From the IMG/VR virus record IMGVR_UViG_3300027847_001698: a stretch of 64,000 nucleotides of DNA; one strand, given 5' to 3'. The notes below the pieces were generated by a model. It was not told the DNA's origin and did not search any database. It saw nothing but the letters and a program-made list of their open reading frames with translations. Below are positions 26,245 through 42,196 of this stretch, one piece after another. Origin of the DNA: a virus. Lineage: Duplodnaviria; Caudoviricetes. The position numbers and the translations under genes were made by a program. The stretch's first letter is position 1. Every line of letters begins with the position of its first letter.

Positions 26245-26619
26245 TTATTTAATTTTAGTTAATACTGATTTCCACGTATCAAAATGAACTGCTCTATCAT
26301 CAATATAATATTCAGCCGCATATTTTATGTTAGTGACCTTTTTGATGTATTGAGCTAAGTCGTATTTTTCTAACCATTCCCAGACTGCTTTCCATTGTTT
26401 ATCTCCCACTTTATTAATTCGGGCTGTTAAAATAAACAATGAATACTTCTTATTTAGTTGTTCTAATGCATCTTTGACATCATCCATTGGTTCATCATAA
26501 ACTGCACCACCTCTCCATCCACTAGAATATTTATGGATAGTAGCATCAAAATCAATTCCTATTAGTTTCTTTCTGGACACTATTGATGCCTCCGCTATAT
26601 ATTCTTTAATTGGTTTCAT
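26245..26619 (-). CDS. HAD-superfamily phosphatase (5'-nucleotidase/PNK-phosphatase-like)
   Basis: IGIDFDATI (motif I), LTAR, K..A..YIDDRA. Confidence 0.85.
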   Translation of the reverse strand: MKPIKEYIAEASIVSRKKLIGIDFDATIHKYSSGWRGGAVYDEPMDDVKDALEQLNKKYSLFILTARINKVGDKQWKAVWEWLEKYDLAQYIKKVTNIKYAAEYYIDDRAVHFDTWKSVLTKIK

Positions 26620-27342: not shown

Positions 27343-28014
27343 TTAATAATCCATTATCATATGATTATAAGAGCTACCATCTATTAATGTATCAGCCGTA
27401 TCATAATAACTAGCTATAATATTCTTTTTGTTATTATCTTTTCCTTGTATCCAATTAATAAGAGTAATATCTTCTATTATCTTTTTATCATTAAATGTTA
27501 GAATCTTTTTACATTTGTTATAATACGATAATACATCCTTTAGATAACTATTTGGTTTATCTTTTCTATTTAAAATTTTTAAGTATTTTTTATATTCTGG
27601 TAAAATAGCTATTAACTTATCTGTTTCTTTGATATGTAATTTCAGAAAGGATTTAAATTTGGGGAGGATCTTTTTGACATTGTTATGTATTATAGGTAAC
27701 TGTTTATCATAGTATTGTTTGTATTTTAAATAATGAGATCTTTTCCCAAAATAGAAAGGACTCCCATATTCAATACTTAGATCTTCTGGCATTGTGGCTA
27801 CCATCTTACTCAGCCAATGATCAAGAGCTTTAGTTACTAATGGATCTATAGTATCATTCTTTAAAAAATATAAATAGTCTATTTGTTTGTCTATTTCATT
27901 AAGTCTTTTCTTAGCTTCTTTGACTTCCTCACTAGCTCGAGGAAAGCGCCACGTAGAAGCGGGAGGGGGTTTAAAAAATAAAGATTCTAGTATCAAAATA
28001 TATTTATCGTTCAT
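27343..28014 (-). CDS. Hypothetical protein
   Basis: 223-aa ORF. Confidence 0.6.
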   Translation of the reverse strand: MNDKYILILESLFFKPPPASTWRFPRASEEVKEAKKRLNEIDKQIDYLYFLKNDTIDPLVTKALDHWLSKMVATMPEDLSIEYGSPFYFGKRSHYLKYKQYYDKQLPIIHNNVKKILPKFKSFLKLHIKETDKLIAILPEYKKYLKILNRKDKPNSYLKDVLSYYNKCKKILTFNDKKIIEDITLINWIQGKDNNKKNIIASYYDTADTLIDGSSYNHMIMDY

Positions 28015-28952
28015 TATACAACTCTATGTTGGATATGTTTTTTTTCTATGAAGTTTATTGCATTTTCTACTGCACCTACTTCCATACCAAATCTACTTTT
28101 AGTTGAACAACTCCCCAAATGAGGAGTTAAGAAGGTGTTAGGAAGGTCGATTAATTTGCCGGTGTAAGGTTCGTCATTGTATACATCAATAGCAGCACGG
28201 GCCATTATATTGGTTAATAGAAAACCACATAAGTCATGTTCATTGATTATACCCCCTCTACTTGTATTTATCAAACAAACATCAGATCTAAGATTATCAA
28301 AATCAGAACCAGCAATATAATTTTTGTTCTCATCTGTATATGGGATATGTATTGTCACAATATCACACATGCTTAATATTGACTCTTTATAATCAGGCTC
28401 ACATCTAGGCAAGTTCATCTTCTCTTCATCTATATCATTAACGAAGATACGTCTAGGTTTCAATCCTTGGAGTTTTTCAATAACCAATTTGCCTACTCGG
28501 CCACATCCTATAACTCCCACATTACAATCCCTGATCTCTTTTCCTATTCTTCTAATCCACTTGCCATTTCTAATATCTTCATCTGTCTTTTGAACATGTC
28601 TTAACATATTTAACATCTGACAAATAGTTAGTTCAGCTACAGCATTAGAAGGAGCATCTGGTGTATATGCTACAGTGATTCCTTTCTTATGACATAGATC
28701 TAAAGGTATTGAATCAAGACCAATTCCCACCCTAGAAATCATTTTTATGCAATCAAATTGATTTAAAATATTATTATATTTTTCAGTTCCTGCTATAACT
28801 ATATTAGGTTGATGTTCTGTCAAAAGTTTTTCTATTTCAGCTTCTGTATATTCTCGACCTACTTCATTATAATGGACATCATACTTATCTAATAGCAATT
28901 TAGGTGTCTCATTTGGAGTCCCAAATGGATAAGTTGTAACCATTATTTTCAT
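28014..28952 (-). CDS. D-isomer 2-hydroxyacid dehydrogenase (phosphoglycerate dehydrogenase-like)
   Basis: SRVGIGLD, GVIGCGRVG, LINTSRG, AAIDVY..EP, TPHLGS. Start set at MKIMVTT (ATGA overlap). Confidence 0.9.
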   Translation of the reverse strand: MKIMVTTYPFGTPNETPKLLLDKYDVHYNEVGREYTEAEIEKLLTEHQPNIVIAGTEKYNNILNQFDCIKMISRVGIGLDSIPLDLCHKKGITVAYTPDAPSNAVAELTICQMLNMLRHVQKTDEDIRNGKWIRRIGKEIRDCNVGVIGCGRVGKLVIEKLQGLKPRRIFVNDIDEEKMNLPRCEPDYKESILSMCDIVTIHIPYTDENKNYIAGSDFDNLRSDVCLINTSRGGIINEHDLCGFLLTNIMARAAIDVYNDEPYTGKLIDLPNTFLTPHLGSCSTKSRFGMEVGAVENAINFIEKKHIQHRVV

Positions 28953-29605
28953 TTCAACACATCCAATAATTTCACGGCCCAATCAAATTGTACAGGAGTA
29001 TCAATATCTAAACTCTCAGGATAAGGCACATCAATAAATGAATGATGACTAGATATTCTATTCCCTGTTTCTTTAAATGATGAGACTCTAAACATATAAA
29101 ATGAAGAATTTTCCTCAATCATTATTGGTAGGTCTTGGGTCTGTAATAACTTTAAAGGATTATGATTAACGGGAACGGGTATATTTCCAAATGACTGCAT
29201 CCAAAATCTAGACTTCTTATATTCTCCACCACATATAGAATCACAATCGTCCATTTCCATTAGGTTAAATGCTCGCTGTATAGTATCAGGCTTCAAGAAC
29301 GGAGATGTTACATGAATCTGACAAAGAATATCAGATGGATGACAGTAATTATTTACACAGTATTTGATAAGACTGTTTACAGACATTTCATGGCCTTCTA
29401 GATTATGACTTCTTCTATAAGCCCTAACATGACCATATGATTCTGCTTCTTCTAGTATTTGTTGACTATCAGTGTCAATCAAAATCGTATAATCAGAAAA
29501 CTTTTCAACAGTTCTCTTCCATAATTCTTTACCCCCAAAGTCCCTAAAATTCTTATTAGGTACTCTTTGGGATTCTTGTTTTATTGGTATAAATAGTATT
29601 TTCAT
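28949..29605 (-). CDS. CMP-ulosonate synthetase (NeuA-like cytidylyltransferase) 1
   Basis: IPIKQESQRVPNKN, VTSPF, ENSSFY, DIDTP..F. Confidence 0.9.
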   Translation of the reverse strand: MKILFIPIKQESQRVPNKNFRDFGGKELWKRTVEKFSDYTILIDTDSQQILEEAESYGHVRAYRRSHNLEGHEMSVNSLIKYCVNNYCHPSDILCQIHVTSPFLKPDTIQRAFNLMEMDDCDSICGGEYKKSRFWMQSFGNIPVPVNHNPLKLLQTQDLPIMIEENSSFYMFRVSSFKETGNRISSHHSFIDVPYPESLDIDTPVQFDWAVKLLDVLK

Positions 29606-29619
29606 TATGTTAGTTTAAG

Positions 29620-30348
29620 TTATAAATTGTATTTAAAAAATGATTCCCAATCATATATATCATTATCCCCTATCACTGCTTTAGCAATAGCGAAATCAAA
29701 TGGAGTATCAATATCAATAGATTCTATGTCATCTAATATATAAAAGTCTGGATTATCACTGATTACTCGTTTCAAAGTTTCCATTACAGTCCGTTTAACC
29801 AATGTTATAGCATAGTTCAATTTCATAACATCTGGAAGCTCTTGACTATTTGGAACGTTATCTAATTGATAGTTTATTGGTTTTTTATCTAACCATAAAT
29901 GATTTTTAACTAAATCGACTGAAGTTAAACTATCATAATCATTAGAATCAAAATGTTTAATTGCATTGATATGACTAGTAACTGATACGTGAGGAGAACA
30001 CACAGGGGCAAGAAAAATAAAATCAGTATCTGTAGTCTGTGCTATATTTCCATGAAATTCACTATTAGTACATTCGGAACTAGCAAAGTAATCTTCTCGT
30101 TTATAAGTTTCACACTCATAATCTTTTCCAAGATTAAGCATCTTATCACAATCACTATTCACAATGATCTCATCTAAAAATCCATGTTGTTTAACGGCAC
30201 ATAAAACTTCTAATTTTCGTTCTAAAAGAGTAGTATTTCCTAATAGTTTAAGATTTTTATCTTTTATTCTCACTGAGCCTTTTCTAACTGCAACAACCGC
30301 AGTCAATTTACCTCGTTTCAAAGTTGACCTCCATTTATATCTATACAT
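29620..30348 (-). CDS. CMP-ulosonate synthetase (NeuA-like cytidylyltransferase) 2
   Basis: VAVRKGSVRIKDKN, CSP, NSQ.LP, IDIDTPFDF. Real start possibly TTG at 30321. Confidence 0.9.
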   Translation of the reverse strand: MYRYKWRSTLKRGKLTAVVAVRKGSVRIKDKNLKLLGNTTLLERKLEVLCAVKQHGFLDEIIVNSDCDKMLNLGKDYECETYKREDYFASSECTNSEFHGNIAQTTDTDFIFLAPVCSPHVSVTSHINAIKHFDSNDYDSLTSVDLVKNHLWLDKKPINYQLDNVPNSQELPDVMKLNYAITLVKRTVMETLKRVISDNPDFYILDDIESIDIDTPFDFAIAKAVIGDNDIYDWESFFKYNL

Positions 30349-31019
30349 GCACCATGAATATAAGAACTCCCATTAGAACATAAAAAAACAATCGGGTCTA
30401 CTATTTCCCGTACTGTTGCTAATCTACGTAATGGGATATTCTTGGCTAATAGCACTTGTTCATCCGTAGTCATTGATTGCATCAACATTTCTGTCATGGT
30501 TTGACTTGGGCAAACACAATTTATATTTATTCCTTTATGTCCAAATTCATATGCTAACTGACGAGTGAATCCTATAATTCCAGCTTTAGATGAAGTATAA
30601 TGTATACCACTAACAATACTTCTATTTCTTCCTGCTATTGAAGATACATTAACTATCTTCCCTCCCGGTTTCATTGACTTTAAAGCCTCTTGGCATGAAA
30701 CAAAATAAGATGCTAAATTAACTTTTAGAACTTCATCCCATTCAAGAATATCGATTTCAGCTAACGGTTTACAATAATTGACCCCCGCACAGTTTATTAA
30801 GATATCAATATTGGAATCTAATCGTTTTATACGATTGAACGCTTCTACTATTTCAGTGTAATATAAAATATCTGCTTTTATATGAACACCTTCACTATTT
30901 TTGATTTCGGTCCGAGATAAATAATAAACATTTTCATTTTTATCTAAAAAATAATCAACCACGCCTTTACCTATTCCTCTACTTCCCCCAACAACTACAA
31001 CTGTTTTACTCGTAGACAT
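30318..31019 (-). CDS. Short-chain dehydrogenase/reductase (SDR)
   Basis: GGSRGIG, INCAG, VNVSS, YTSSK, INGG. Confidence 0.93.
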   Translation of the reverse strand: MSTSKTVVVVGGSRGIGKGVVDYFLDKNENVYYLSRTEIKNSEGVHIKADILYYTEIVEAFNRIKRLDSNIDILINCAGVNYCKPLAEIDILEWDEVLKVNLASYFVSCQEALKSMKPGGKIVNVSSIAGRNRSIVSGIHYTSSKAGIIGFTRQLAYEFGHKGININCVCPSQTMTEMLMQSMTTDEQVLLAKNIPLRRLATVREIVDPIVFLCSNGSSYIHGACIDINGGQL

Positions 31020-31419
31020 GATCTACATCTGGTCTAGTAATTGCATATCTTGCACCAACATCAGAAATACATTTAATCTGATGCCATACGTTGTTTGGTA
31101 CTATAATGATATCCCCGGTATTGACTTTCTGGTATCCTTGACCATCAATCCACCATTCCCATTCGCCGTCAAGTATCACCCAGTTTTCATCAGCATCCGG
31201 ATGATAATGTCGTCTGTTACCTTCATTCTTTAACTGTTGAATTACTACCCCACCAAACAACTCATTATATGCTACCCTGACTGCCCAAGACCCCATACCC
31301 AAATCTTTTCTTAATTCCTCAAGATTTATGGTAGATATATTTTGATATTTTAACACAGTATCCCAATCAGCGGAAATTAGACCATCACTTTTTAATACTT
31401 CTACTAAATCTGTACTCAT
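31006..31419 (-). CDS. Cupin-domain protein
   Basis: HYHPDADE.W...G and VP..VWH motifs. Confidence 0.85.
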   Translation of the reverse strand: MSTDLVEVLKSDGLISADWDTVLKYQNISTINLEELRKDLGMGSWAVRVAYNELFGGVVIQQLKNEGNRRHYHPDADENWVILDGEWEWWIDGQGYQKVNTGDIIIVPNNVWHQIKCISDVGARYAITRPDVDHVYE

Positions 31420-31428
31420 ATTATTCTC

Positions 31429-32295
31429 TTATGCCTCTAATGTATCATGCCATTTAAAACGATCATTTAATTCTTCCGTAAATAAATTATTTAGAAGATT
31501 ATCATCAAGTTTCATTGTATCTGTATGATTAGGAACTACTATATCTCTAAAATATCTAGCTTGTGCTAATTGATCATGGAGAGTAAGAAAGTTTCTTTTA
31601 CCTCTATAATCTATATGATCAGCAGCTTCTAAATATTTAGTATAGTTCTTATGATATTTTAAACCTTTGTTTTCTTCTTCTGTAATTTCATCTACTTCCT
31701 TATTATCAATTCTAAATCCATAAGCCTTACCATAGTTATAAAAATTCAATCCAGTAATAAAAATCTCTTGTACTGGATAATTCAATATCATTAGAAGACC
31801 AGCGTATCCATTATTAAAACTAGAATTAGAATGAACACCATTCTCGACATATGCCTTTCCCTTAATTTCATTGGCAATATTTCCCCTCAATACAGGATCT
31901 ATAATGTACAATGGGATATCATACTGTGACACATATTGTTTATAATTTGCTTCAGTATCTGGCATTCTCCAATTAGTTTCTCCTTCTTTTATTTTACAAT
32001 TTTCCCCAACAACTATGTATTTAATACCTTTTCTGTTTTCTTCTTCTTTTAAGAATTCTCCTAGAATTGGACCATAACAATTATTTAAGTTATGAACCAA
32101 AATATCAGTTCGAGATCCATAATCTACAGGATCAGGAATAGTTTCATTGATTCTTATAACTAAATCATAAGAATCGATTACGGATCCTAAACCAGACCCC
32201 ATTATATGTGGGGACGGTCCAACATACGCAACACGTTTACCAGATACAAGATTTGAAAAGTTTTCATCTTTATTAATATTTAGATATGCGGGCAT
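31429..32295 (-). CDS. GT29-like (sialyltransferase-like) glycosyltransferase
   Basis: GKRVAYVGPS...G..IDSYDLVIRIN...DYGSRTD (L-motif-like); NNGYAGLL...ITGLNFY (S-motif-like). Confidence 0.75.
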   Translation of the reverse strand: MPAYLNINKDENFSNLVSGKRVAYVGPSPHIMGSGLGSVIDSYDLVIRINETIPDPVDYGSRTDILVHNLNNCYGPILGEFLKEEENRKGIKYIVVGENCKIKEGETNWRMPDTEANYKQYVSQYDIPLYIIDPVLRGNIANEIKGKAYVENGVHSNSSFNNGYAGLLMILNYPVQEIFITGLNFYNYGKAYGFRIDNKEVDEITEEENKGLKYHKNYTKYLEAADHIDYRGKRNFLTLHDQLAQARYFRDIVVPNHTDTMKLDDNLLNNLFTEELNDRFKWHDTLEA

Positions 32296-32307
32296 TATTT
32301 ATATTCC

Positions 32308-33165
32308 TTATAATTTAGATAAATCAAAAAATTCTGTTATTAGATCATAATTTAAATGATTTGTTTTTTGGCCATTTCGTTCTATAGGTACTATTTTCAT
32401 TCTATCTAATACCGATAACATAAATTCTTTAATTCGTAAAGATCGATTATCAGTCTTTAATGTATTTAATGGAAATGGAGAATATGCCATATTGAGGTGC
32501 TTCTCTATAGCTTCAAATTTAATAGCCGGACGTATCCATTGCCACATTCTATCCATGTTTCCCATAGGATCACTAACTTGATTATGATTAGACTCACTAG
32601 AACTAATATCATTATTGTAGAGTATATTATGTGTTACTACGGCATCATTATAAAATGGAATTTCTAGAATATTGAAGAAATGACAAGATGACCATCCTCC
32701 ATCAAACTCTAATGTGTATGGAAAGAACCAATCTAGTAATGAATTATGTACCATCTTAAATCCATTATGGGTAAACAAATGAGAAGAATAATTACAGCTT
32801 CTCAAAAAATCATGATCGCCTGAATATTTAGATGAAATATTCTTCCATGGGTATACTGTAAGTGTTGCAGGCACAAGAACAGTTAGATCTTCTATTAGTT
32901 GATCCAAAATAGATTTATCACCTAATGCTTCAATACCATAATCATAATCTACAAATCCATAATATTCATAATCTTTAGGAACCATGTCTACTAATATATT
33001 TCTAGTCTCCGCCCATGTAGTATTCGGACAAAACTTAAGTGCATCAGGATGCGGAGAATCATGAGTTACAAAATAAAAATCACACTCATCTTTATTTGCA
33101 AATAACTTTATATGTTCCGGATTTGGTGTAGTCGGTGTTACTTGTAAAATGCATAATTTTTTCAT
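32308..33165 (-). CDS. Putative GT-A fold glycosyltransferase
   Basis: TWAETRN.L and YYGFVDYD pattern; located inside the glycan cluster. Confidence 0.5.
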   Translation of the reverse strand: MKKLCILQVTPTTPNPEHIKLFANKDECDFYFVTHDSPHPDALKFCPNTTWAETRNILVDMVPKDYEYYGFVDYDYGIEALGDKSILDQLIEDLTVLVPATLTVYPWKNISSKYSGDHDFLRSCNYSSHLFTHNGFKMVHNSLLDWFFPYTLEFDGGWSSCHFFNILEIPFYNDAVVTHNILYNNDISSSESNHNQVSDPMGNMDRMWQWIRPAIKFEAIEKHLNMAYSPFPLNTLKTDNRSLRIKEFMLSVLDRMKIVPIERNGQKTNHLNYDLITEFFDLSKL

Positions 33166-34145
33166 TTGACTTCTTTTTTGTATACCTCAAGCCAATGTGT
33201 TGTCATTTCATTCATCATAGTTTCAAATGTATATTTCTTGTCCCAATCAAATAAAGTCTTAGCTTTCGAACAATCCCCTTTAAGATACTTCAATTCATCT
33301 GGTCTCATGTATCTAGGATCTTGTTCTATGTATTGAGTATAATCAAGTCCTAGCTTACTAAATACTTGATCACATAATTCCCTAATTGAATGTGTTATTC
33401 CTGTGGCTATCACAATATCATTAGGTTTATCAAGTTCAAGAATCTTTTTCATTGCTCTTACATAATCATATGAATGACCCCAATCTCTATAAGCATCAAG
33501 ATTACCTAATGTTAAAACATCTTGTAGTCCTAACTTAATTCTAACCGCAGCTTTAACTACTTTATTTGTTACAAAGTTAGCTCCCCGTCTAGGACTCTCA
33601 TGATTAAACAGAATACCATTTGATGCAAATAATTTATATGCTTTTCTATATGATCTAACTATATTATATGCATACAACTTTGCACATCCATATGGACTAA
33701 CTGGTGTCATTGGGGTGGATTCTCTTTGATAATTATCATCATCTACTGAATTACCAAACATCTCAGATGAACTAGCTTGATAGAATCTTGCGGCTGGGCA
33801 TATCTGTCTATAGCATTCTAACATATTTAATACACCCAATGCATTAACTTGGCATGTAAACTGAGGTTGATCGAAACTTATTCGCACATGACTTTGTGCA
33901 GCCAGATTATATATTTCATCTGGCATTATTGCCATCATAGCTTTTTGTATAGATGAAATATCTAGTAAATCACCATATGTTATATTGACCTTACCGTCAA
34001 GATGATCAATGCGGGTGTGCTGATGTTCAGGAGTTGAGTTTCTCCTTACTATTCCGTGTACATCGTATCCTTCATCTAATAAATGTTCAGATAAATATGA
34101 ACCATCCTGGCCAGCTATTCCTGTTATAAATGCTTTCTTTTTCAT
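33162..34145 (-). CDS. gmd: GDP-mannose 4,6-dehydratase
   Basis: ITGIAGQDGSYL, YNLAAQSHV, YQASSSE, SPYGCAK, LFNHESPRRG. Confidence 0.97.
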   Translation of the reverse strand: MKKKAFITGIAGQDGSYLSEHLLDEGYDVHGIVRRNSTPEHQHTRIDHLDGKVNITYGDLLDISSIQKAMMAIMPDEIYNLAAQSHVRISFDQPQFTCQVNALGVLNMLECYRQICPAARFYQASSSEMFGNSVDDDNYQRESTPMTPVSPYGCAKLYAYNIVRSYRKAYKLFASNGILFNHESPRRGANFVTNKVVKAAVRIKLGLQDVLTLGNLDAYRDWGHSYDYVRAMKKILELDKPNDIVIATGITHSIRELCDQVFSKLGLDYTQYIEQDPRYMRPDELKYLKGDCSKAKTLFDWDKKYTFETMMNEMTTHWLEVYKKEVK

Positions 34146-35182
34146 TTTTCCTTCTCTATTTTTAATACAGTTTCACATATATATTCAATATCATCATCAG
34201 TAAGAGTCAAGGATGATGGCAAATATACAATACTTTTATAAACTTTTTCTGTAACTGGGAATTCTTTATGTGAATAGAAATAATTATTATGATATATCGG
34301 AACGTAATATTGAGTTGCCGATATTCCTGATTCTTTTAATTTAGATATCAATGTTAAAGGGTCATCAGATCTAATTATAATTCCCCAGGATGAATCATAA
34401 CCATAATCAATTATATCTAAATATTGTTTATATTTATTCCATATTCTGTTTCGAATACTTAGTAATTCATCTAACTTCTCTAATTGATCTAGGCCGTATG
34501 CTGCAAGAATATCATTAAACTTAAGATTTAAACCTACATGTTCATGTATCCTAGTTTTTCTCCAGTTGCCACCTTGATCTCTTAATTGAAGACTTCTCTC
34601 GTAGATGTTTTTGTCGTTGGTAAATAATACTCCACCTTGACCAGTTGTAACTAGCTTAGGAACTGAGAATGAGAATGTGCCAAATAATCCTTTCTGACCA
34701 CAATCTCTAATACCTATTCCCTGACAAGAATCTTCAATCATTAAAACTTCGCTATCATCACATGCATCACTTATTAAATCTCTATCTTCACCACAATACC
34801 CATTATGGTTTACAAAGATAATACCTGAACATGCAGCCATGCGCTCTATGACTAAATCAGGATTCATGCATAGTGTATCTTCTTTTATATCTATCAATTC
34901 AATATCCAGATTTAAAAATTTAGCTACATTTGCTGCTGCCAAGAAAGAATATGCAGGAAACAAAATAGTTTCCCCTTTTATGAATCCACAGGCATTCATA
35001 CCTAACAATAATGCTGATGTTCCTGAATTAGTAGAAACGCAATACTTACTATTAGTTATCTCACATATTTTCTCTTCAAACTTTCTAACAGTTTCTCCTG
35101 GTCCTACGAAACCAGTTTCCATCTGACTACAAACTCTTTTAACACTAGATGACATTACTAATGGTTCTACTTGATGTATCAT
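34142..35182 (-). CDS. DegT/DnrJ/EryC1/StrS PLP sugar aminotransferase (perosamine synthase-like)
   Basis: NSGTSAL, IEDSCQ, FSFSVPKLVTTGQGG. Confidence 0.92.
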   Translation of the reverse strand: MIHQVEPLVMSSSVKRVCSQMETGFVGPGETVRKFEEKICEITNSKYCVSTNSGTSALLLGMNACGFIKGETILFPAYSFLAAANVAKFLNLDIELIDIKEDTLCMNPDLVIERMAACSGIIFVNHNGYCGEDRDLISDACDDSEVLMIEDSCQGIGIRDCGQKGLFGTFSFSVPKLVTTGQGGVLFTNDKNIYERSLQLRDQGGNWRKTRIHEHVGLNLKFNDILAAYGLDQLEKLDELLSIRNRIWNKYKQYLDIIDYGYDSSWGIIIRSDDPLTLISKLKESGISATQYYVPIYHNNYFYSHKEFPVTEKVYKSIVYLPSSLTLTDDDIEYICETVLKIEKEK

Positions 35183-35733
35183 GGTTTTGTTGCTTCAATA
35201 TTCAGACTTATCAACCGTCCAGTGGAATCCATATGTGGAATATATGCCATTGAATAATCATCGTAATCTTCTGGCATAACGTCTTGCCATCTATATCGAC
35301 TAACATGTGTAAACCCACATTCATATAAAGTTTCACTCATAGACTTGAAATCATAAGTTGTTTTTTGATAGATATATTTATTTTCTCCATCAACTATTAT
35401 CTTCCAACGTCCAAATATAGGACCTAATATACCTTGGTGATTTAAGTCACCGGTTGTTGAATATACACTAACTATTGATTCGAAATCGGGAACCGATAAT
35501 CTAAGAGTTCCGCCCGATTTTAATACTCTTTTCCACTCAGTTAAAACACCTGGTATTTGAAATCTATCAAAATACACTAATGCTCCACATGAGTAAATTA
35601 TGGATACACTGTCTGATTCAATCATAGGTAGAGTTTCTATTGTATGACAATAATCTATATGTTCAGAATTATTTATATCTACATGGACATATCCTGGAAG
35701 AAATCTATCTCCGCATCCCAAATGTAAATTCAT
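35179..35733 (-). CDS. Class I SAM-dependent methyltransferase
   Basis: LHLGCG, EWKRVLKSGG.LR.SVPD. Confidence 0.88.
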   Translation of the reverse strand: MNLHLGCGDRFLPGYVHVDINNSEHIDYCHTIETLPMIESDSVSIIYSCGALVYFDRFQIPGVLTEWKRVLKSGGTLRLSVPDFESIVSVYSTTGDLNHQGILGPIFGRWKIIVDGENKYIYQKTTYDFKSMSETLYECGFTHVSRYRWQDVMPEDYDDYSMAYIPHMDSTGRLISLNIEATKP

Positions 35734-36152
35734 TGACTCTGTCCTTGTTCAATCAAATGAGGAGTAATTCTAAATGTATCAGATTCATAATCACTTCCGC
35801 CTCTTGGACCTTTAGAGAAAACTACAAATTCATTATCTTCTAACATGTTTAAAGCGTGAATTTCATATGGAGTAGAAGTAATCAAATCTCCCACCTCCAT
35901 GATTTCACATTTAATGGAATCATTATCATCTCTAGCATCTGTATACCAATATTCCAATCTGCCTTTTGTAACCAAAATAGTTTGAGTACTTTGTTTATGG
36001 TAATGACTACCTCTCCATGCACCTTTTACTGATTTTATTATTGCAACATGATCTATTTTATCCTTATAAAATAGATCAGCTATCACTCCCCTATCATCTT
36101 CATGGACTTCTAATGGTTCTTTTACTTCATTCCATGAATTCCGTTTAATCAT
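35730..36152 (-). CDS. Cupin, NDP-sugar epimerase/isomerase-like (WxcM/RmlC-like)
   Basis: HEDDRG, RGSHYH, EIHA. Confidence 0.8.
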   Translation of the reverse strand: MIKRNSWNEVKEPLEVHEDDRGVIADLFYKDKIDHVAIIKSVKGAWRGSHYHKQSTQTILVTKGRLEYWYTDARDDNDSIKCEIMEVGDLITSTPYEIHALNMLEDNEFVVFSKGPRGGSDYESDTFRITPHLIEQGQSQ

Positions 36153-37366
36153 TCTGTTATCCCATCCATATCCATAATTATGGCTTTGGGATTTATATTA
36201 TATATAATTTCTTTAAGTTTACTTGATAGGTTCCATGACAATATCAATACATAAACCCCTTTATACTTTTCTAGTATTTCATCCCCGGTAATTAGTATTC
36301 TGCTTAATGGAGTATATTTTCCTTGTTTATATTCGGAACAATCCGTAACATAATCTATAACACTACTATCAAGATTATAAAAATTAAGAAATGTATTCCC
36401 CTTTGCTGCTGCACCAACTGCTACAATATTATGCCCCATAGTTTTCAAGGTATATATTTTCTGTAAAAAACTATTTCTTCTACTAAGAATACTTTGCATG
36501 AAAGAATCATACGTAGAAGGTTCAAATAAACCCATAGCCTCTTCTTGAGCTTTAAACTCTCTAACTGAATAAGGAGAACGTACTTTCTTCTTTCCTGCAT
36601 ATATTCTTAATGATCCACCATGATAATCAACAATCTCCGCATCATAAATATATAATCCAGCTTTTCCGAGTAGATTTTGTAAACCAGTTATCGTAAAATA
36701 ACTAACATGTTCATGATAGATTTGATCAAAACGTTGAGTCTCAACTGATGTTGCCCAATATGGTTGTTCACATACAAATGTTCCATTCTCTACTAGTACG
36801 CTTGCAACACCTTTAGCAAAATCTAAAGGATCATTAGAATGATTGAATACATTATTTGCTAGTACAACATCGGCGGCAGTCATATGATCTGCCATATTTA
36901 AATCAAAACACCCATGAATCACATCAATGTCATTTTCGTTAGATATATCCACCATTGCTTTTGCTGCATCTACTCCAGATACATTCATTCCAATAGATTT
37001 AAATTGATTACATAAATAACCATCATTAGATCCAATTTCTACAAGTATAGATTCTGGTTTCAATGATAATTTTTCAGTCACCGTTAATGCATATTCCTCC
37101 CAATGAGCTCTCGCTATTCCCGAATTAGATGATGTATACGAATAATCATAATCATTATATCGTTTAACAGCATCTGATTCATAACCCGTTTGGATATGTC
37201 CACACTTTTGACATAAATGACATTCTAATGGCAACACTGGTTCTGATTCTTCTAATCGTTCTTCCCCTATAAACGTATCACTAAATGGATGAACTCCTAA
37301 TTGAATTATAGGGATTAATGTTTTAGATTTACATGATAGGCATTCAGTTCTTCTCATTTTATCCAC
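36149..37366 (-). CDS. NDP-hexose C-methyltransferase
   Basis: C..C...LG.HP...CGH.Q zinc domain, EIGSNDG, FDQIYHEH, HGGSLR, GAAAKGNT. Confidence 0.9.
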   Translation of the reverse strand: MDKMRRTECLSCKSKTLIPIIQLGVHPFSDTFIGEERLEESEPVLPLECHLCQKCGHIQTGYESDAVKRYNDYDYSYTSSNSGIARAHWEEYALTVTEKLSLKPESILVEIGSNDGYLCNQFKSIGMNVSGVDAAKAMVDISNENDIDVIHGCFDLNMADHMTAADVVLANNVFNHSNDPLDFAKGVASVLVENGTFVCEQPYWATSVETQRFDQIYHEHVSYFTITGLQNLLGKAGLYIYDAEIVDYHGGSLRIYAGKKKVRSPYSVREFKAQEEAMGLFEPSTYDSFMQSILSRRNSFLQKIYTLKTMGHNIVAVGAAAKGNTFLNFYNLDSSVIDYVTDCSEYKQGKYTPLSRILITGDEILEKYKGVYVLILSWNLSSKLKEIIYNINPKAIIMDMDGITE

Positions 37367-37764
37367 GCCTTATCGTTTGATTGACCTAGATATGGTCCAT
37401 TTTTAAATTCAAAGACCTTAGTTCCATCTTCAATCATTTCAAAGAAATGGCCACCTCTAAATGTCATACAATAATCTGATGGCAACAATTCTACTTCTTG
37501 TAGTATTGTATCATCTAAATCATAAAATACAGCTTTAAGAACTCCAGCTATAACTATGATTGATTCTTGGGTTATATTATTTTCTTTCTTTACTTCTAAA
37601 TGTTTATGTGCTTCAAATCTTTTTCCAGTATTACCTTTTATTATAGCCATCTGTAAGGCTTCTTGTTCAGTAGTAACATCACATCTACCTTCACTTATGT
37701 CGTCAATATTCCCAACTACATGAAGAAGATTCCCAGGTTCAATTTTAGAATATATTTTTTCCAT
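37354..37764 (-). CDS. WbuC-like cupin
   Basis: FEAHKH, TQE.I.V..G, GGHFFE, KNGPY. Confidence 0.75.
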   Translation of the reverse strand: MEKIYSKIEPGNLLHVVGNIDDISEGRCDVTTEQEALQMAIIKGNTGKRFEAHKHLEVKKENNITQESIIVIAGVLKAVFYDLDDTILQEVELLPSDYCMTFRGGHFFEMIEDGTKVFEFKNGPYLGQSNDKAWIK

Positions 37765-37765
37765 T

Positions 37766-38572
37766 TTACGCTTGTATTAGTGTTAGGTTTCCCCAATCTT
37801 TATTGGGAGTGCTTATATTGTTTTGTATATTGGATACAGATTTATATTTATTTGCTTTCATCTCGACATATATTTTATGTCTTGATTCGTCTGAGTGAGT
37901 TTCATGACTTACACATGAATGTTCACTTGATATGAATCTATAGTTATTAACAAATTCATGTGGTTCTAAATCTTCTCTATCATCCAAATGACTACATATT
38001 TCAACTAAAGGAGTAGATTTATTAAATATCATTATTCGGTTTAATAAATCTCTTTCTTCTGATCCCCAACCTACAAATTCTTCATCGAATCCTAAAACTG
38101 ATTCAACTAGTTTTCGAGGATAAACCCAACAACTACCATAACGGTCACCTTTTTTGAACTCATAATAAGATTCTTGATATGGGAACGTCATGCCATTTCT
38201 TGATCCGTCTTTAGTTTCATAACATGCAATCTTAAAAACAGTTGATGGACTTGATTCTAACATTGGGACTAATGTTTCTAAAAATTGACTATCAAATCTG
38301 AAATCACAATCCCAACCTAAAACGAAATCGGATTCGCTTCGTTTAAATCCAAAATTCAAAAGTTTTCCTCTACTCCAATCACAATCAAGATCAACAACAT
38401 AATGTGTTAAATTATCTAATTTTATAGTATCCGGATTTACTATATTTTCACTAACTGCTTCCGTTATAACAAACGCACAATCATTCAGGTTATCTTGAGT
38501 TGAGATAGATTTAATAGAATCGGGAATCATATGAAGTCTATCTTTCAAACACATACAAAATGTCAATATCAT
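37766..38572 (-). CDS. GT2/GT7-like glycosyltransferase
   Basis: WSRGKLLNFG, WDCD, GFDEEFVGWGSEERD. Confidence 0.85.
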   Translation of the reverse strand: MILTFCMCLKDRLHMIPDSIKSISTQDNLNDCAFVITEAVSENIVNPDTIKLDNLTHYVVDLDCDWSRGKLLNFGFKRSESDFVLGWDCDFRFDSQFLETLVPMLESSPSTVFKIACYETKDGSRNGMTFPYQESYYEFKKGDRYGSCWVYPRKLVESVLGFDEEFVGWGSEERDLLNRIMIFNKSTPLVEICSHLDDREDLEPHEFVNNYRFISSEHSCVSHETHSDESRHKIYVEMKANKYKSVSNIQNNISTPNKDWGNLTLIQA

Positions 38573-41500: not shown

Positions 41501-41790
41501 TAATCCAATTTTGGGAAAGATACAAACTTTATATCACTATATGTATTCTTTAGACTGTCAGGTATTTCCTCGTATGCAACATACAAGGAAAGGCTATGTC
41601 CAGTTTTACATCTAGTAAACCAAGCTAATATTCTTCGTAAATACGAAATCGGATTCTTTTTGTAATGCAGTATAATTATTGGTATTTTATTATTTTCTTT
41701 TACGTTCATAAAAAAACGGGATTTAACCCGCTCTTCCAAATTAAGGTTTAATTTCTTGGGTGTCTCCGCATTCACCTGAAGCGCATTCAC
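38569..41790 (-). CDS. 1073-aa multi-domain glycosyltransferase (three GT-A-type modules plus C-terminal GT42/DUF115-like module)
   Basis: KVGLSLEINDLP module; KTDID...GYSEDIFGWGHDD; WDAD...GYDEEFKFYGFEE; IMGNGPSMKEIN...LGY..IILVGVD. Confidence 0.85.
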   Translation of the reverse strand: MNALQVNAETPKKLNLNLEERVKSRFFMNVKENNKIPIIILHYKKNPISYLRRILAWFTRCKTGHSLSLYVAYEEIPDSLKNTYSDIKFVSFPKLDYDILNRELKLIGEFNYYFITSSSILPKENCPSNSIDFLISLARKYPTMKKVGLSLEINDLPEIQSKPDRIIEEEQHWQNLMPDKDAYYADINDSFAVYQRYVQGDCALRSRRPYVARNMEWYNKDCNEGEEAYIMDKQDILTLLIGRTYSYNSIKGIKTEFYFSILGECTGWGGIRGELAVKGRRLRIRWNDSKGTVTVLDFSVDFLNYTGVSTTSGKIFGKLIGKLDTPKTNTIIHRRKGSSGVNHPDISTEVVYINRIKSIAKDIIPIYVVVAGYNIEKRKVDAFLEMNRSVFVSMQINVIVVTNTHYNSNYDNVSYIMYPIEQTQFSIGKTVNYGIRAVQDTSAIIVKTDIDIMFTSNIFNYLRDEVSLGHARICLCSHVSKQQPSMTLEKWEGLDKDKGGLGACFAMHRGDWHKACGYSEDIFGWGHDDTELCRRLEKTDSIDLHSNSDYILLHINHARRATPKVGSFFQDRATGNLPLANNSKWTNPNWGRAGNLQVIVKDSKLITFCMCLKNRSETAIRSIESLVNERTIPYCNFIISEDYSDDLLDLSNFKYAKHIDHYVINTGDKWNRSKTCNYGFRRATTTFVSSWDADFIFPDKFLNTFREDLLGWNFTQTFYGIRVTETGHSYRGGHKFHPGQLYGGMYIYKTKHIQGVNGYDEEFKFYGFEELDANDRICRKYGIDVEYITEHGYIYHLSHGDESRDDMAHYDINKRRMIKNQRGRVMEVNPNGWGDSKLVEKKDYTQKTIVIMGNGPSMKEINFDLIENVDTFGMNGAYRWYYENKWWPKYFGCFDETVIPNHQAEFEKMINDSNVPIKRFFMALNISANDRFQYVNLHLRNSDIAEFGDTFETFGYGGNTGVNCCQVALILGYTKIILVGVDCKYKEIVDGASEIGGKLVITKPPAKNENYWLDDYQKVGDKYNYPKPEIFHRPAWNAFAEFSKEHGVEVVNCSPGSSLDCFRMSTLEEELIT

Positions 41791-42196
41791 TTAACACCCC
41801 AGAAATACTATCATCCGATACGGTATGAATGCATCTTTTCCCGGATGAATCAATGATGATTACTTTATACGTCCCCTCAACCGGAGGATCCATATATGCA
41901 GGAGCAGGATCAGCAGCAGATTTATGATTTGCTTTCCACATAAGTTTATTAGAGTCGGAAAGCGTAAGAGCATACGCCGTCGTGATTGCCGATCTAGTGG
42001 CCTCCCATATTTGACAGGGAACCGGATCCAGTGTGCTTTTCACCAAAGTTTCTGTAAGATTTCTAACAAATCTAGCAAATTCTAAAGCTTCAGCTTCAGT
42101 ATTGAACTCAAGTTTAATATCTGTATTCTGATCGAAGTCAAACTGCGGCTGCAGTTCTTCCCACGGCGACAAATCCCAAAACGTTGTAACTGGCAT
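41741..42196 (-). CDS. Hypothetical protein
   Basis: 151 aa, GC-richer DNA. Confidence 0.65.
   Translation of the reverse strand: MPVTTFWDLSPWEELQPQFDFDQNTDIKLEFNTEAEALEFARFVRNLTETLVKSTLDPVPCQIWEATRSAITTAYALTLSDSNKLMWKANHKSAADPAPAYMDPPVEGTYKVIIIDSSGKRCIHTVSDDSISGVLSECASGECGDTQEIKP

Follow-up and report, generated by a model that had tools for sequence, protein, structure and literature searches.

The 64,000-nucleotide stretch of viral DNA analysed here (the window; IMG/VR record IMGVR_UViG_3300027847_001698) carries a phage-borne glycan-synthesis operon in which one arm for a GDP-deoxysugar and one for a CMP-sugar accompany several glycosyltransferases, in support of the original prediction made from the DNA letters. 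We give about even chances to the reading in which this island directs a phage-encoded, wholly cytoplasmic glycan assembly whose acceptor is a protein, most probably a virion protein. The island and its bordering ORFs are:

41741..42196, minus strand: 151-aa ORF, probable first gene of the operon, hypervariable in the phage population
38569..41790, minus strand: multi-domain 'assembly-line' glycosyltransferase, 1073 aa from GTG (GT2, Glyco_transf_7C and MptE-like domains)
37766..38572, minus strand: GT2-type (GT-A) glycosyltransferase, 268 aa (Pfam Glyco_tranf_2_2, Glycos_transf_2, Glyco_transf_7C)
37354..37764, minus strand: WbuC-like cupin, 136 aa (NCBIfam TIGR04366, 34.1 bits, cut-off 42)
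36149..37366, minus strand: NDP-4-keto-hexose 3-C-methyltransferase (TylC3/TcaB9 type), 405 aa (Pfam and PDB)
35730..36152, minus strand: cupin, 140 aa, CapF C-terminal domain- or FdtA-like (Pfam)
35179..35733, minus strand: small SAM-methyltransferase-like protein, 184 aa (Methyltransf_11, 22.6 bits, cut-off 21.2; weak)
34142..35182, minus strand: DegT/DnrJ/EryC1 PLP-dependent sugar aminotransferase, 346 aa (Pfam, 218.9 bits)
33162..34145, minus strand: GDP-mannose 4,6-dehydratase (Gmd), 327 aa (PF16363, 382 bits)
32308..33165, minus strand: GT-A fold glycosyltransferase, 285 aa, DUF5672/DUF707-like (structure model)
31429..32295, minus strand: GT29-like (sialyltransferase-like) CMP-sugar transferase, 288 aa (Pfam Glyco_transf_29)
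31006..31419, minus strand: Cupin_2 protein, 137 aa (Pfam Cupin_2, 47.4 bits)
30318..31019, minus strand: classical SDR (FabG/PtmA-like), 233 aa (Pfam adh_short, 143 bits)
29620..30348, minus strand: divergent CMP-ulosonate-synthetase-like protein, 242 aa, or 233 aa from an alternative start (CTP_transf_3, 30.7 bits, cut-off 22.6)
28949..29605, minus strand: CMP-ulosonate synthetase-like protein, 218 aa (Pfam CTP_transf_3, 55.7 bits, cut-off 22.6)
28014..28982, minus strand: D-2-hydroxyacid dehydrogenase, 322 aa, or 312 aa from an alternative start (Pfam 2-Hacid_dh_C, 137.8 bits)
27343..28014, minus strand: 223-aa ORF, translationally coupled to the island end at 28014 by a 1-nt overlap

Fifteen consecutive minus-strand ORFs form a gap-free run from position 41790 to 28014, their junctions being overlaps of 1-34 nt or spacers of 1-14 nt, and the flanking genes are those of a phage (tail sheath, baseplate, virion proteins and exonucleases); the ORF list, junctions and flanks thus uphold the tightly overlapped 15-gene operon in phage DNA that had been proposed. 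Terminator-like sites in the island are not commoner than in shuffled sequence. The GC content of the island is 0.31-0.35 and that of the whole window 0.30-0.41, GC skew is negative without interruption through the island, and both composition and strand skew run on unbroken into the flanks. None of the 15 island proteins has a membrane segment, and Pfam and NCBIfam revealed no flippase, polymerase or ligase among the island genes, as had been claimed, and no priming phosphoglycosyltransferase either. The window, whose context is that of a lytic-type jumbo phage, contains no integrase. The transcription unit probably starts at the 151-aa ORF, which has no Pfam, NCBIfam or PHROG match; among six near-identical contigs it holds 13 SNPs (11 non-synonymous) and an in-frame 6-nt indel, while the enzyme genes show just 13 SNPs over 13.7 kb. 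An exact TTCTATATATAT motif lies at 42254-42243, 47 nt upstream of this ORF; AGAACAAA precedes the structural genes of the window and is absent ahead of the island, which carries instead TTCTATATATAT, the other recurring, promoter-like motif of the window. At the opposite border the 223-aa ORF matches nothing in Pfam, PHROGs or NCBIfam and has a homologue in none of the fetched loci, and its membership of the island is uncertain.

Among ENA, JGI and Logan assemblies, 13 contigs contain the large glycosyltransferase; in the six that were fetched the island is 99.8-99.99% identical and has the same phage flank on the structural-gene side, and five of the six also include the phage genes upstream. 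Of the island's sampled words, a fraction of at least 0.66 is present in 11 sequencing runs from seawater or other marine samples. About 25-30 IMG/VR viral contigs carry most of the cassette, colinear and with intact ORFs, at 31-71% identity, and include T4-like genomes of about 190 kb, such as UViG_3300020477_000014 (189.7 kb) and UViG_3300030330_005091 (195.7 kb), each of which has a capsid gene of the T4 Gp23 type. The order common to these relatives and the window is Maf-like, (C-methyltransferase, cupin), small methyltransferase, WbuC cupin, DegT-like, Gmd, GT-A plus GT29-like, cupin, SDR and cytidylyltransferase-like. In the relatives the Maf-like unit (about 230-260 aa) is free-standing, the DegT-like gene encodes a short form of 198-235 aa, and GT-A and GT29-like parts share one gene; in the window the Maf-like unit follows two to three GT-A domains within one protein, the DegT-like gene is full length, and GT-A and GT29-like enzymes have separate genes. 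HpcH/HpaI aldolase, GT4, FkbM, TylF and NTP-transferase genes are found only in the relatives, whereas the window has in addition the pair of 218-aa synthetase and 2-hydroxyacid dehydrogenase, which recurs in loci L011 and L012 at 53-62% identity. The fetched contexts of close homologues (47 IMG/VR loci and phage-like marine contigs) all look viral. The gene kit is widespread in uncultured ocean phages and appears to be missing from sequenced phage isolates; the five island proteins tested have no match in 50,697 phage records, in which the C-methyltransferase finds distant matches only, and in the literature we found no description of a colinear glycan cassette of uncultured marine phages. 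The conservation of the cassette across phage lineages and the low SNP count in the population were counted in favour of the explanation preferred here.

HMM annotation with Pfam and NCBIfam confirmed all the enzyme families that had been named, including, in the GDP arm, Gmd, DegT, the C-methyltransferase, the weakly matched small methyltransferase and the cupins. Gmd scores 374 bits against TIGR01472 (NCBIfam cut-off 415) and up to 312 bits against Gmd proteins in the PDB, with which it lines up at the SSSE, YxxxK and NHESPRRG motifs. Perosamine synthetases are among the PDB matches of the DegT enzyme, whose lysine lies within an SVPK motif aligned with the homologues in L004 and L026, that in L004 (39%) being the sole full-length one. 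The C-methyltransferase has three Pfam domains, Methyltransf_13 (Zn), Methyltransf_23 and Methyltransf_14, and matches D-mycarose 3-C-methyltransferase (4rv9, 5.6e-52) and TcaB9 (2.4e-36) in the PDB. The small methyltransferase is 38-52% conserved in 20 loci, and the WbuC-like cupin, probably a sugar epimerase or isomerase, is 36-47% conserved in 26 viral loci. The 140-aa cupin, a candidate 3-epimerase, 5-epimerase or ketoisomerase, matches Polysacc_synt_C (28.9 bits, cut-off 28.7), Cupin_2 and, weakly, FdtA in Pfam, and accompanies the C-methyltransferase in L004, L020, L024, L026, L038, L042 and L045. From the families present, the predicted 'perosamine-type' sugar should be refined to a putative 3-C-methyl-4-amino-4,6-dideoxyhexose.

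The CMP arm was likewise matched, with two CTP_transf_3 proteins, SDR, 2-Hacid_dh and the third of the island's three cupins. The 218-aa synthetase-like protein, whose PDB matches are CMP-Neu5Ac synthetases (1qwj, 3e-11) and NeuA, has more than 400 marine homologues at 42-53%, and its 242-aa counterpart bears an N-terminal R-x-G-S-x-R-x-x-x-K-N motif; since they score 70.7 and 31.9 bits, respectively, against the PseF model, far under its equivalog cut-off of 205.7, the activated acid is not specified. Homologues of the SDR, at 48-54% identity in 14 viral loci and a weaker 25-26% in three others, always adjoin a cupin and a cytidylyltransferase-like gene. The 137-aa cupin is the best-conserved cassette protein (63-71% identity in 14 viral loci), and its PDB matches are generic cupins only; the dehydrogenase resembles PGDH and glyoxylate reductase (PDB PGDH, 2e-35). 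NeuB and KdsA had no match in the island or the larger window ORFs tested, nor in three cassette-bearing relatives rated complete. No HpcH aldolase turned up when every window ORF of at least 50 aa was searched with HMMs. An HpcH/HpaI aldolase does adjoin the cassette, or lie within about 10 kb of it, in all relatives rated complete and in L011 and L012. As no synthase was found in the ORFs searched, it is solely the activating and transferring enzymes, both present, that point to the predicted ulosonate cap. The claim of autonomous synthesis is likewise supported only in part, and not as worded: the island holds no GDP-mannose supply gene, nor was an ulosonate synthase found in it.

At least four glycosyltransferase genes had been expected and four were counted, the fourth being the 285-aa ORF by its GT-A fold; they hold at least five catalytic domains, a sixth being a lead only, with two types of CMP-sugar transferase, one of Maf/CstII fold and one GT29-like. 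Gene callers start the largest at the ATG at 41709 (1046 aa), not at the GTG at 41790. Its domain N1 (about residues 1-330) is a GT-A-like lead (Atlas lead 0.89), N2 (about 300-600) a weak GT-A paralogue by internal BLAST and M (about 590-850) a GT2 domain, with Pfam Glycos_transf_2 at 608-705; Pfam also finds Glyco_transf_7C twice. Domain C (about 840-1073) has an MptE-like match at 842-986 (Pfam, 34.0 bits versus a cut-off of 34.6), and the best PDB matches of its AlphaFold model (pLDDT 89) are Maf (5mu5, E 2.7e-6) and CstII/Cst-I, all 17 matches below 1e-3 being Maf or sialyltransferases. The model suggests that domain C is a CMP-sugar transferase of the Maf/CstII fold. This phage unit is the catalytic core alone (~230 aa), without the N- and C-terminal domains of Maf, and, as it resembles CstII, a lipo-oligosaccharide enzyme, equally well, it provides no pointer to a protein acceptor. 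The 268-aa GT2 is a paralogue of domain M (30% identity to residues 605-840). The 285-aa protein, the sole island ORF lacking a match in Pfam and NCBIfam, scores 0.99 in the Atlas to viral DUF5672-like clusters; its AlphaFold model (pLDDT 90) best matches RmlT, TarP and TarS in the PDB (E 4e-7), and a D-x-D motif is invariant across 23 homologues. In relatives it is fused with a GT29-like or a Maf-like domain, and the shared position of these two domains suggests equivalent roles. The GT29-like enzyme matches Glyco_transf_29 over residues 20-97 (29.8 bits, cut-off 23) and phage GT29 clusters (Atlas 0.95), and 11 aligned homologues display sialylmotif-L-like and S-like blocks with H-D-Q invariant.

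In the pathway that we propose, Gmd, as its family membership shows, converts host GDP-mannose to GDP-4-keto-6-deoxymannose. From the families present, the TylC3/TcaB9-type enzyme would methylate C3, one or both cupins would epimerise or isomerise the sugar, DegT would aminate the keto carbon and the small methyltransferase might add an N- or O-methyl group, giving a GDP-linked 3-C-methyl-4-amino-4,6-dideoxyhexose. One or two acidic 2-keto sugars would be activated with CTP by the two CMP-sialate-synthetase-like enzymes, the acid being tailored or generated by the SDR, cupin and 2-hydroxyacid dehydrogenase. Its carbon skeleton would be supplied not by a NeuB- or KdsA-type synthase but by the host, or else by an HpcH/HpaI-type aldolase with its gene at another site of the genome, the situation in every relative examined. 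The soluble GT-A domains of the 1073-aa enzyme, which number two to three, would work with the 268-aa GT2 and the 285-aa GT-A to build a short oligosaccharide, to which, in an order that is conjectural, the Maf/CstII-fold domain and the GT29-like enzyme would add the CMP-activated acid. In what is the least certain step, the putative acceptor would be a protein present in the cell during infection; the likeliest is a virion protein that is glycosylated before or during assembly.

Parts of this pathway have counterparts in known systems. The island shares its three-domain 3-C-methyltransferase with actinomycete C-methyl branch pathways (TylC3, mycarose; TcaB9, tetronitrose), and its Gmd and DegT-type transaminase with the GDP-perosamine pathway (Gmd plus Per). 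Known C-methyltransferases, however, use dTDP-sugars; that the substrate here is GDP-linked we infer from the island's only dehydratase being the GDP-mannose enzyme. To our knowledge this combination has not been characterised, and the suggestion that the product is likely undescribed is plausible. Giant viruses encode their own nucleotide-sugar tailoring enzymes (Gmd, aminotransferases, methyltransferases), as the island does: chlorovirus PBCV-1 has Gmd and the multi-domain transferase A064R, the capsid-glycan transferases of chloroviruses being multi-domain, and Mimivirus and Megavirus possess amino-sugar pathways for virion glycosylation. Their soluble multi-domain transferases work without host secretory or lipid-carrier pathways. 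These are eukaryotic viruses, however, and we know of no CMP-sugar arm of the island's composition or 3-C-methyl branch among them, although some giant-virus MAG contigs (L046, L048) hold distant sets of Maf-like, synthetase, dehydrogenase and SDR genes. Mycobacteriophage glycosylation systems consist of one to a few transferase genes within the structural operon, and we know of none with a CMP-sugar arm or C-methyl amino-sugar pathway. According to the account of Freeman et al. 2023 in PMC12619734, phage-encoded transferases O-glycosylate the mycobacteriophage capsid and tail tube, such that the phage decorates its own virion proteins, as proposed for the island. The transferase-domain fold is that of bacterial nonulosonic-acid systems (Maf; CstII, GT42; 5mu5, 1ro8). 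GDP-linked precursors feature in the legionaminic acid route. The pairing of CTP_transf_3 with an SDR recalls PtmA (SDR) and LegF (CMP synthetase) in legionaminic acid loci (PMC4481668). In contrast to bacterial flagellin and lipo-oligosaccharide systems, the island lacks a NeuB, PseI or LegI synthase, a hydrolysing 2-epimerase and an N-acetyltransferase, and its synthetases fall far below the PseF threshold.

A serious rival to this reading, though a less probable one, is that the sugars are instead placed on a lipid-linked or envelope acceptor of the host (lipopolysaccharide core or O-chain, capsule or S-layer) with host priming, flipping and ligation, blocking superinfection or altering the surface of the dying cell. 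Known phage seroconversion takes one to three genes, against 15 genes with rare sugars here, and the lytic-type context and the lack of any membrane-associated component also argue against it. Soluble glycosyltransferases do, however, use lipid-linked inner-membrane acceptors as well, so absent membrane segments are compatible with host export machinery. In the T4-like relatives the cassette adjoins rIIA/rIIB, PhoH and an exonuclease, outside the structural genes, which makes early expression for host remodelling equally plausible, and the island's promoter-like motif differs from that of the structural genes. The equal match of CstII and the likeness of the 285-aa GT-A to the wall-teichoic-acid glycosyltransferases TarP, TarS and RmlT point in the same direction, and pelagimyophage clusters of glycosyltransferase and LPS genes have been given this interpretation in print (PMC7029224).

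Attachment of the sugars to modified bases in the phage's DNA, as a means of restriction evasion, is improbable, and of the three targets originally offered (virion proteins, DNA and host surface) DNA is an unlikely one, the least likely. Some phage clusters attach hexose, heptose or Kdo-like sugars to 5-hydroxymethylcytosine (5hmC); Pyle et al. reconstituted clusters that glycosylate 5hmC, assigned one product as a Kdo-type acid and describe another cluster with a cytidylyltransferase (bioRxiv 10.1101/2023.12.21.572611). Like the island, these clusters unite transferases and enzymes of sugar activation, a cytidylyltransferase among them. They are defined, however, by a C5-methyltransferase and a 5mC dioxygenase, which produce their 5hmC acceptor, and the island and window ORFs tested revealed no cytosine C5-methyltransferase, TET/JBP or hydroxymethylase. 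No island transferase is of the GT-B T4-beta-GT type, and a thymidylate-synthase-family gene was found in none of the three cassette-bearing relatives rated complete, in a search whose positive controls responded; Tet_JBP had no match there either, but the control of that search was silent and this negative has no weight. That host or other bacterial DNA was mis-assembled onto the phage contig can be dismissed: all the enzyme families are ones that bacterial loci for O-antigen or capsule typically contain, but the island recurs with its phage flank in contigs from several data sources, is continuous with its surroundings in composition and strand skew, is translationally coupled into the next phage ORF and has close homologues in viral-looking contexts.

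The ORF map of the window contains 15 consecutive minus-strand ORFs, running from 41790 to 28014, and family models bear out the original prediction that these genes form a phage glycan-synthesis island. Neighbouring genes share 1-34 nt or leave gaps of 1-14 nt, the GC content of the island (0.31-0.35) lies within the whole-window range of 0.30-0.41, and the GC skew is negative across its entire length. In scans, terminator-like sites inside the island, and likewise sigma-70 promoter sites, were no commoner than in shuffled sequence. Two recurring motifs are promoter-like. Exact TTCTATATATAT occurs four times in the window, each copy upstream of minus-strand genes, the island included, while AGAACAAA occurs 15 times against an expected 4.5 and is found upstream of plus-strand structural genes, those for the sheath and baseplate among them; one copy falls within the 2-hydroxyacid dehydrogenase gene (28323-28330, minus strand), and the island is not preceded by this motif.

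Features of the island, its flanks and the two motifs
41741-42196, minus strand: 151-aa ORF, first of the operon, no family match
38569-41790, minus strand: multi-domain glycosyltransferase, 1073 aa
37766-38572, minus strand: GT2 glycosyltransferase, 268 aa
37354-37764, minus strand: WbuC-like cupin
36149-37366, minus strand: three-domain C-methyltransferase (PF08421 47.9, PF13489 61.6 and PF08484 117.4 bits, in that order)
35730-36152, minus strand: cupin like the CapF C-terminal domain or FdtA
35179-35733, minus strand: small methyltransferase-like protein
34142-35182, minus strand: DegT aminotransferase (PF01041 218.9 bits, residues 14-339)
33162-34145, minus strand: Gmd (PF16363 382 bits, profile positions 1-332 of 332)
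32308-33165, minus strand: 285-aa ORF, no family match, assigned by fold
31429-32295, minus strand: GT29-like protein (Pfam 29.8 bits, cut-off 23)
31006-31419, minus strand: Cupin_2 protein, 137 aa
30318-31019, minus strand: classical SDR
29620-30348, minus strand: divergent CTP_transf_3 protein (30.7 bits, Pfam cut-off 22.6)
28949-29605, minus strand: CTP_transf_3 protein, 218 aa (55.7 bits, Pfam cut-off 22.6)
28014-28982, minus strand: D-2-hydroxyacid dehydrogenase, most like phosphoglycerate dehydrogenases and glyoxylate reductases
53495-55171, plus strand: tail sheath (flanking phage gene)
58665-61466, plus strand: baseplate wedge (flanking phage gene)
42243-42254, 47788-47799, 21894-21905 and 18251-18262, all minus strand: TTCTATATATAT
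42283, 47835, 51585, 53436, 57347 and 58649, plus strand, and elsewhere: AGAACAAA

The DNA flanking the island is that of a phage. In addition to the sheath and baseplate wedge it encodes members of several virion-protein families, a MoxR-type ATPase with its partner protein, and nucleases, namely exonucleases and the exonuclease subunit of a DNA polymerase. The best relatives of the sheath belong to jumbo phages (~26% identity), and island-bearing contigs reach 229,015 bp. Assemblies from ENA, JGI and Logan yielded 13 contigs with the exact 1073-aa transferase; the six that were fetched align to the window at 99.83-99.99%, and five of these extend into the upstream phage genes, up to the virion-protein gene at 49116-51572. 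Eleven seawater or marine metagenome runs dated 2017-2025 contain at least two thirds of the sampled words of the island, and no RNA dataset was among the matches listed for the island or for its C-methyltransferase gene. The recurrence of the island in near-identical contigs and in these runs thus disposes of the concern, raised with the original prediction, that host DNA had been mis-assembled into the contig.

The first arm of the pathway starts from GDP-mannose. From Gmd-specific models and motifs, the Gmd ORF is predicted to encode a full-length GDP-mannose 4,6-dehydratase: its best 11 PDB matches are all Gmd (271-312 bits, human Gmd at 312 bits), its TIGR01472 score (374 bits) is slightly below the strict equivalog cut-off of 415, and its SSSE, YGCAK and NHESPRRG segments align with human Gmd 6gpj as the Ser/Thr-Glu, Tyr-x3-Lys and nucleotide-sugar loop, respectively. 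The C-methyltransferase displays the TylC3/TcaB9 architecture, in which an N-terminal zinc domain is followed by a SAM domain and a C-terminal Methyltransf_14 domain. In the PDB it matches the mycarose 3-C-methyltransferase 4rv9 (5.6e-52 over residues 7-383), with TcaB9 also among its best solved relatives, and tblastn against phage records returned only distant matches (21-32%), one in a Synechococcus phage and the others in huge uncultured phages. C-methyltransferases of this type require a 4-keto group to methylate C3, as established for TylC3 and TcaB9. The family is defined on dTDP-4-keto sugars, whereas the island enzyme would act on a GDP-sugar, because Gmd is the only 4,6-dehydratase in the island. 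The DegT ORF is predicted from its family match to encode a full-length DegT/DnrJ/EryC1 sugar aminotransferase, acting at C3 or C4; the lysine of its SVPK motif, which we take to be the PLP-binding lysine, is kept in the related contig L004 and in the short forms of other relatives.

In the proposed pathway Gmd would generate GDP-4-keto-6-deoxymannose, and the TylC3/TcaB9-type enzyme would methylate C3 of this 4-keto intermediate. The cupins are candidates for epimerization or keto-isomerization, while amination by DegT would come next, and the small methyltransferase would then transfer a second methyl group. These steps would yield a derivative of GDP-3-C-methyl-4-amino-4,6-dideoxyhexose, for which we infer the step order and stereochemistry as well as a GDP rather than dTDP substrate. 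The island contains no GDP-mannose supply gene, and the GDP arm thus depends on the host. Elsewhere in the window a phage-borne homocysteine S-methyltransferase (6633-7661, minus strand; Pfam 186.5 bits) could, speculatively, help renew methionine and SAM for the two methyltransferases of the island.

The second arm appears to be directed at a CMP-sugar. The 218-aa CTP_transf_3 protein matches CMP-Neu5Ac synthetases in the PDB, and the 137-aa Cupin_2 protein gave generic matches only in a PDB sequence search. Neither of the two CTP_transf_3 proteins has an equivalog-level match to PseF, KdsB or NeuA; they score 70.7 and 31.9 bits with the PseF model (far below the cut-off of 205.7) and at most 29 bits with the KdsB models (cut-offs 155-281), and thus point to no particular acid. 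The presence of two activating enzymes and two types of CMP-sugar transferase implies an acidic 2-keto sugar. Among the island genes and the larger window ORFs tested, family models detected no NeuB/PseI/LegI- or KdsA-type synthase. Similarly, PF03102 and PF00793 were found in none of the three CheckV-complete relatives that carry a colinear cassette, positive controls having responded in both searches. The original interpretation stands as regards a glycan-building operon with two sugar arms, but not as regards autonomous synthesis, as the island has no gene for GDP-mannose supply, nor as regards synthesis of an ulosonate within the island, as no NeuB- or KdsA-type synthase was found in it.

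One option for the source of the keto acid is an aldolase encoded elsewhere in the phage genome. Aldolases of 2-keto-3-deoxy sugar acids belong to the HpcH/HpaI family, and a class II enzyme of this family is encoded beside or within ~10 kb of the cassette in all three CheckV-complete relatives and likewise in the large marine contigs L011 and L012. The aldolase of the relatives has more than 6000 matching clusters in marine data, the source names among the matches listed including 2-dehydro-3-deoxyglucarate aldolase and RhmA, and an HMM from five phage HpcH aldolases found nothing above noise in any window ORF of 50 aa or more. A second option is a host-made acid such as Kdo. As a third, we infer that an aldonic acid could be oxidized at C2 by the 2-hydroxyacid dehydrogenase, because its family includes known 2-ketoaldonate reductases.

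Further transferases accompany the GT2 enzyme. The C-terminal domain of the 1073-aa protein, folded with 30 homologues (pLDDT 89), is predicted to be an MptE-like catalytic domain with a sialyltransferase-like fold. All 17 of its PDB matches below 1e-3 are Maf or sialyltransferases, among them CstII and Cst-I; the top match by fold is Maf 5mu5 (E 2.7e-6, TM 0.52), although the Maf-like unit of ~230 aa covers only part of the 632-residue chain (TM normalized to target 0.22). The MptE-like model PF01973 scores 34.0 bits, just below its cut-off of 34.6, and stand-alone Maf-like relatives are 228-262 aa in length. Identity as a true Maf was rejected, as the N- and C-terminal domains that flank this unit in Maf proteins of ~600 aa are absent, and the domain was filed as Maf/GT42-fold. 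Internal comparison of the same protein revealed a GT2 domain paralogous to the 268-aa gene, preceded by a weaker GT-A paralogue; that its N-terminal 300 residues are GT-A-like is only a lead. The 285-aa ORF is, as judged from its modelled fold, a GT-A glycosyltransferase: the model built from 23 aligned viral homologues (pLDDT 90.3, pTM 0.90) has 153 PDB matches below 1e-3, led by RmlT, TarP and TarS, and D73 and D75 of a D-x-D motif are invariant in the 23 sequences. In the GT29-like protein the Pfam match spans the motif-L region only (residues 20-97), and an alignment of 11 phage homologues, read by eye, suggests sialylmotif L- and S-like blocks and an invariant His-Asp-Gln.

Membrane-spanning segments are lacking in all 15 proteins, the only feature over threshold being a conserved beta-strand in the Maf domain. 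Pfam and NCBIfam searches of the island found no priming phosphoglycosyltransferase, flippase or ABC transporter, polymerase or ligase, in agreement with the earlier statement that flippase, polymerase and ligase genes are missing. A lipid-carrier (Wzx/Wzy or ABC) surface-polysaccharide locus was consequently rejected, as its priming, export, polymerase and ligase genes were not found.

Searching IMG/VR with the whole 1073-aa protein found no relative, while an alignment of the Maf-like domain retrieved 47 viral loci. A map of these loci, made from ORF maps and searches with all the island proteins, revealed a colinear cassette in ~25-30 IMG/VR contigs of 8-214 kb. In order, it comprises the Maf-like unit, the C-methyltransferase and cupin (in a subset), the small methyltransferase, the WbuC cupin, a short DegT-like gene and Gmd, followed by a fusion of the 285-aa GT-A with a GT29-like domain, the 137-aa cupin, the SDR, a cytidylyltransferase-like gene, and additional GT2, FkbM, TylF and nucleotidyltransferase genes. 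Identity to the island is 61-67% for Gmd, 63-71% for the 137-aa cupin, 48-54% for the SDR and 31-35% for the cytidylyltransferase-like protein. In one contig (L021) the GT-A homologue is fused to a second Maf-like domain instead of the GT29-like protein. A T4-type major capsid gene is present in two of the three relatives searched whole. In the T4-like relatives the cassette adjoins rIIA/rIIB, PhoH and an exonuclease, and the DegT slot is occupied by a 197-235-aa short form (for example L026:4638-5234 and L021:11627-12220) that keeps the lysine motif and lacks ~60 internal residues and the C-terminal domain. L011 and L012 contain a second, overlapping set in which GT2 and the Maf-like unit occur with homologues of the 218-aa synthetase (50-53%) and of the 2-hydroxyacid dehydrogenase (53-62%). 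In L004 the GDP arm is present, its DegT being full-length, and here too the Maf-like domain is joined to a GT2 domain. Thus, phages draw on a pool of glycan modules, of which the island in the window is a mosaic and an unusually complete example.

The cassette is widespread in phages and common in seawater, and is apparently without a description in the literature. A profile of the Maf-like domain matched 585 clusters (50% identity) at E <1e-30 among 1.84 billion representatives, and many of the matches are 1000-2700 aa long and contain the domain two or three times, indicating that assembly-line fusions are common. Against 50,697 phage records, neither megablast of the whole island nor tblastn of the Maf-like domain, 137-aa cupin, 285-aa GT-A protein and 218-aa synthetase gave a match. 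The island is absent, with other genes in its place, from three syntenic but distant relatives of the window's own phage lineage (L001-L003) found through the flanking ATPase (35-42% identity). In the literature searched, neither Maf/DUF115-type transferases nor HpcH aldolases of phages were the subject of a paper; the nearest was a study of pelagimyophages, in which glycosyltransferase and LPS-type genes were read as modifying the host O-chain (PMC7029224). Within the 140-kb L011, which carries the related CMP module, a thymidylate-synthase-family gene lies 3 kb upstream (L011:1327-2232) and an IS605 OrfB/Cas12f-like TnpB gene lies inside the sugar cluster (L011:16058-17215). Two giant-virus MAG contigs (L046 and L048) and a 334-kb contig (L047) encode, all within 20 kb of one another, distant forms of the Maf-like unit (32-33%), the synthetase (33-34%), the 2-hydroxyacid dehydrogenase (23-24%) and the SDR (25-26%), and thus giant viruses of eukaryotes may possess a CMP-sugar module of similar make-up.

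With respect to the acceptor, we place slightly less than even confidence in a phage protein, probably of the virion. All the enzymes are soluble and the pathway has no link to a lipid carrier or to export, which favours a cytoplasmic acceptor; a search of the window proteins for Ser/Thr-rich acceptor-like tracts found nothing convincing. It could be argued that the glycan instead decorates the host envelope, as the island is preceded by TTCTATATATAT and not by the structural-gene motif AGAACAAA, and the cassette of T4-like relatives is located in the rII/PhoH region, both of which speak against a virion-specific role. The lack of membrane segments and of a route to a lipid carrier or export, however, also tells against the envelope, which we judge a somewhat unlikely acceptor but a serious alternative. 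Phage DNA is a highly improbable one, for although other phage clusters are known to make DNA glycans, one of them with a Kdo-type acid (bioRxiv 10.1101/2023.12.21.572611), which keeps this explanation above zero, there is no hydroxymethylase, C5-methyltransferase or TET-type gene in the island or the window ORFs tested, and a thymidylate-synthase-family gene is present in none of the three relatives rated complete. A glycan on virions, if true, would matter in the ocean for the stability and stickiness of particles, for grazing and for host recognition, and one on the host would bear on superinfection exclusion.

Virus-encoded glycan synthesis is a kind of system that is already known, being established in giant viruses of eukaryotes and, in a simple form, in mycobacteriophages. 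The island is far more complete than these simple forms, as it combines two sugar-nucleotide pathways with five or more transferase domains. Marine-phage glycosyltransferase clusters have been noted before but, to our knowledge, were read only as lipopolysaccharide genes. What appear to be new are the gene composition, the absence of a NeuB- or KdsA-type synthase and the spread across uncultured marine phage lineages. Taken as a whole, the data are compatible with a reading that we put forward as unlikely to hold in full: several ocean-phage lineages would share a mobile kit that joins a CMP-activated acidic keto-sugar and a GDP-derived 3-C-methyl-4-amino-6-deoxyhexose into a virion-protein glycan, with the NeuB/KdsA synthases bypassed through the HpcH/HpaI class II aldolase and/or the 2-hydroxyacid dehydrogenase. 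If true, the cap would resemble sialic acid but be of a new kind, and no protein glycosylation system would have been described before in tailed phages of the sea. Enzymes of the pathway also pose new questions open to test, among them whether a C-methyltransferase can act on a GDP-sugar and by what route an activated keto-acid sugar arises without a NeuB- or KdsA-type synthase.

Variation among the six near-identical contigs is concentrated in the first ORF of the operon, for which no homologue was found in any database or fetched locus. Its 456 nt contain 13 SNPs, 11 of them non-synonymous, and an in-frame 6-nt indel, against only 13 SNPs in the 13.7 kb of enzyme genes, and it may encode a fast-evolving specificity, adaptor or anti-defence protein. 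In one population variant (L007, JGI Ga0586925_0000124) a gene for a 250-aa DUF559/MTES_1575-like protein of the Vsr endonuclease fold (L007:16535-17287) sits exactly between the small methyltransferase and DegT genes, at the junction corresponding to ~35180 in the window, with several substitutions at the insertion junction; it looks like a free-standing homing endonuclease. Finally, a 124-aa ORF 1.4 kb downstream of the island (26245-26619, minus strand), which had no database match, PDB sequence search included, has an I-D-F-D-A-T segment resembling motif I of HAD phosphatases and, at its C terminus, Y-I-D-D, and from these motifs could be a candidate small sugar-phosphate or nucleotide phosphatase.
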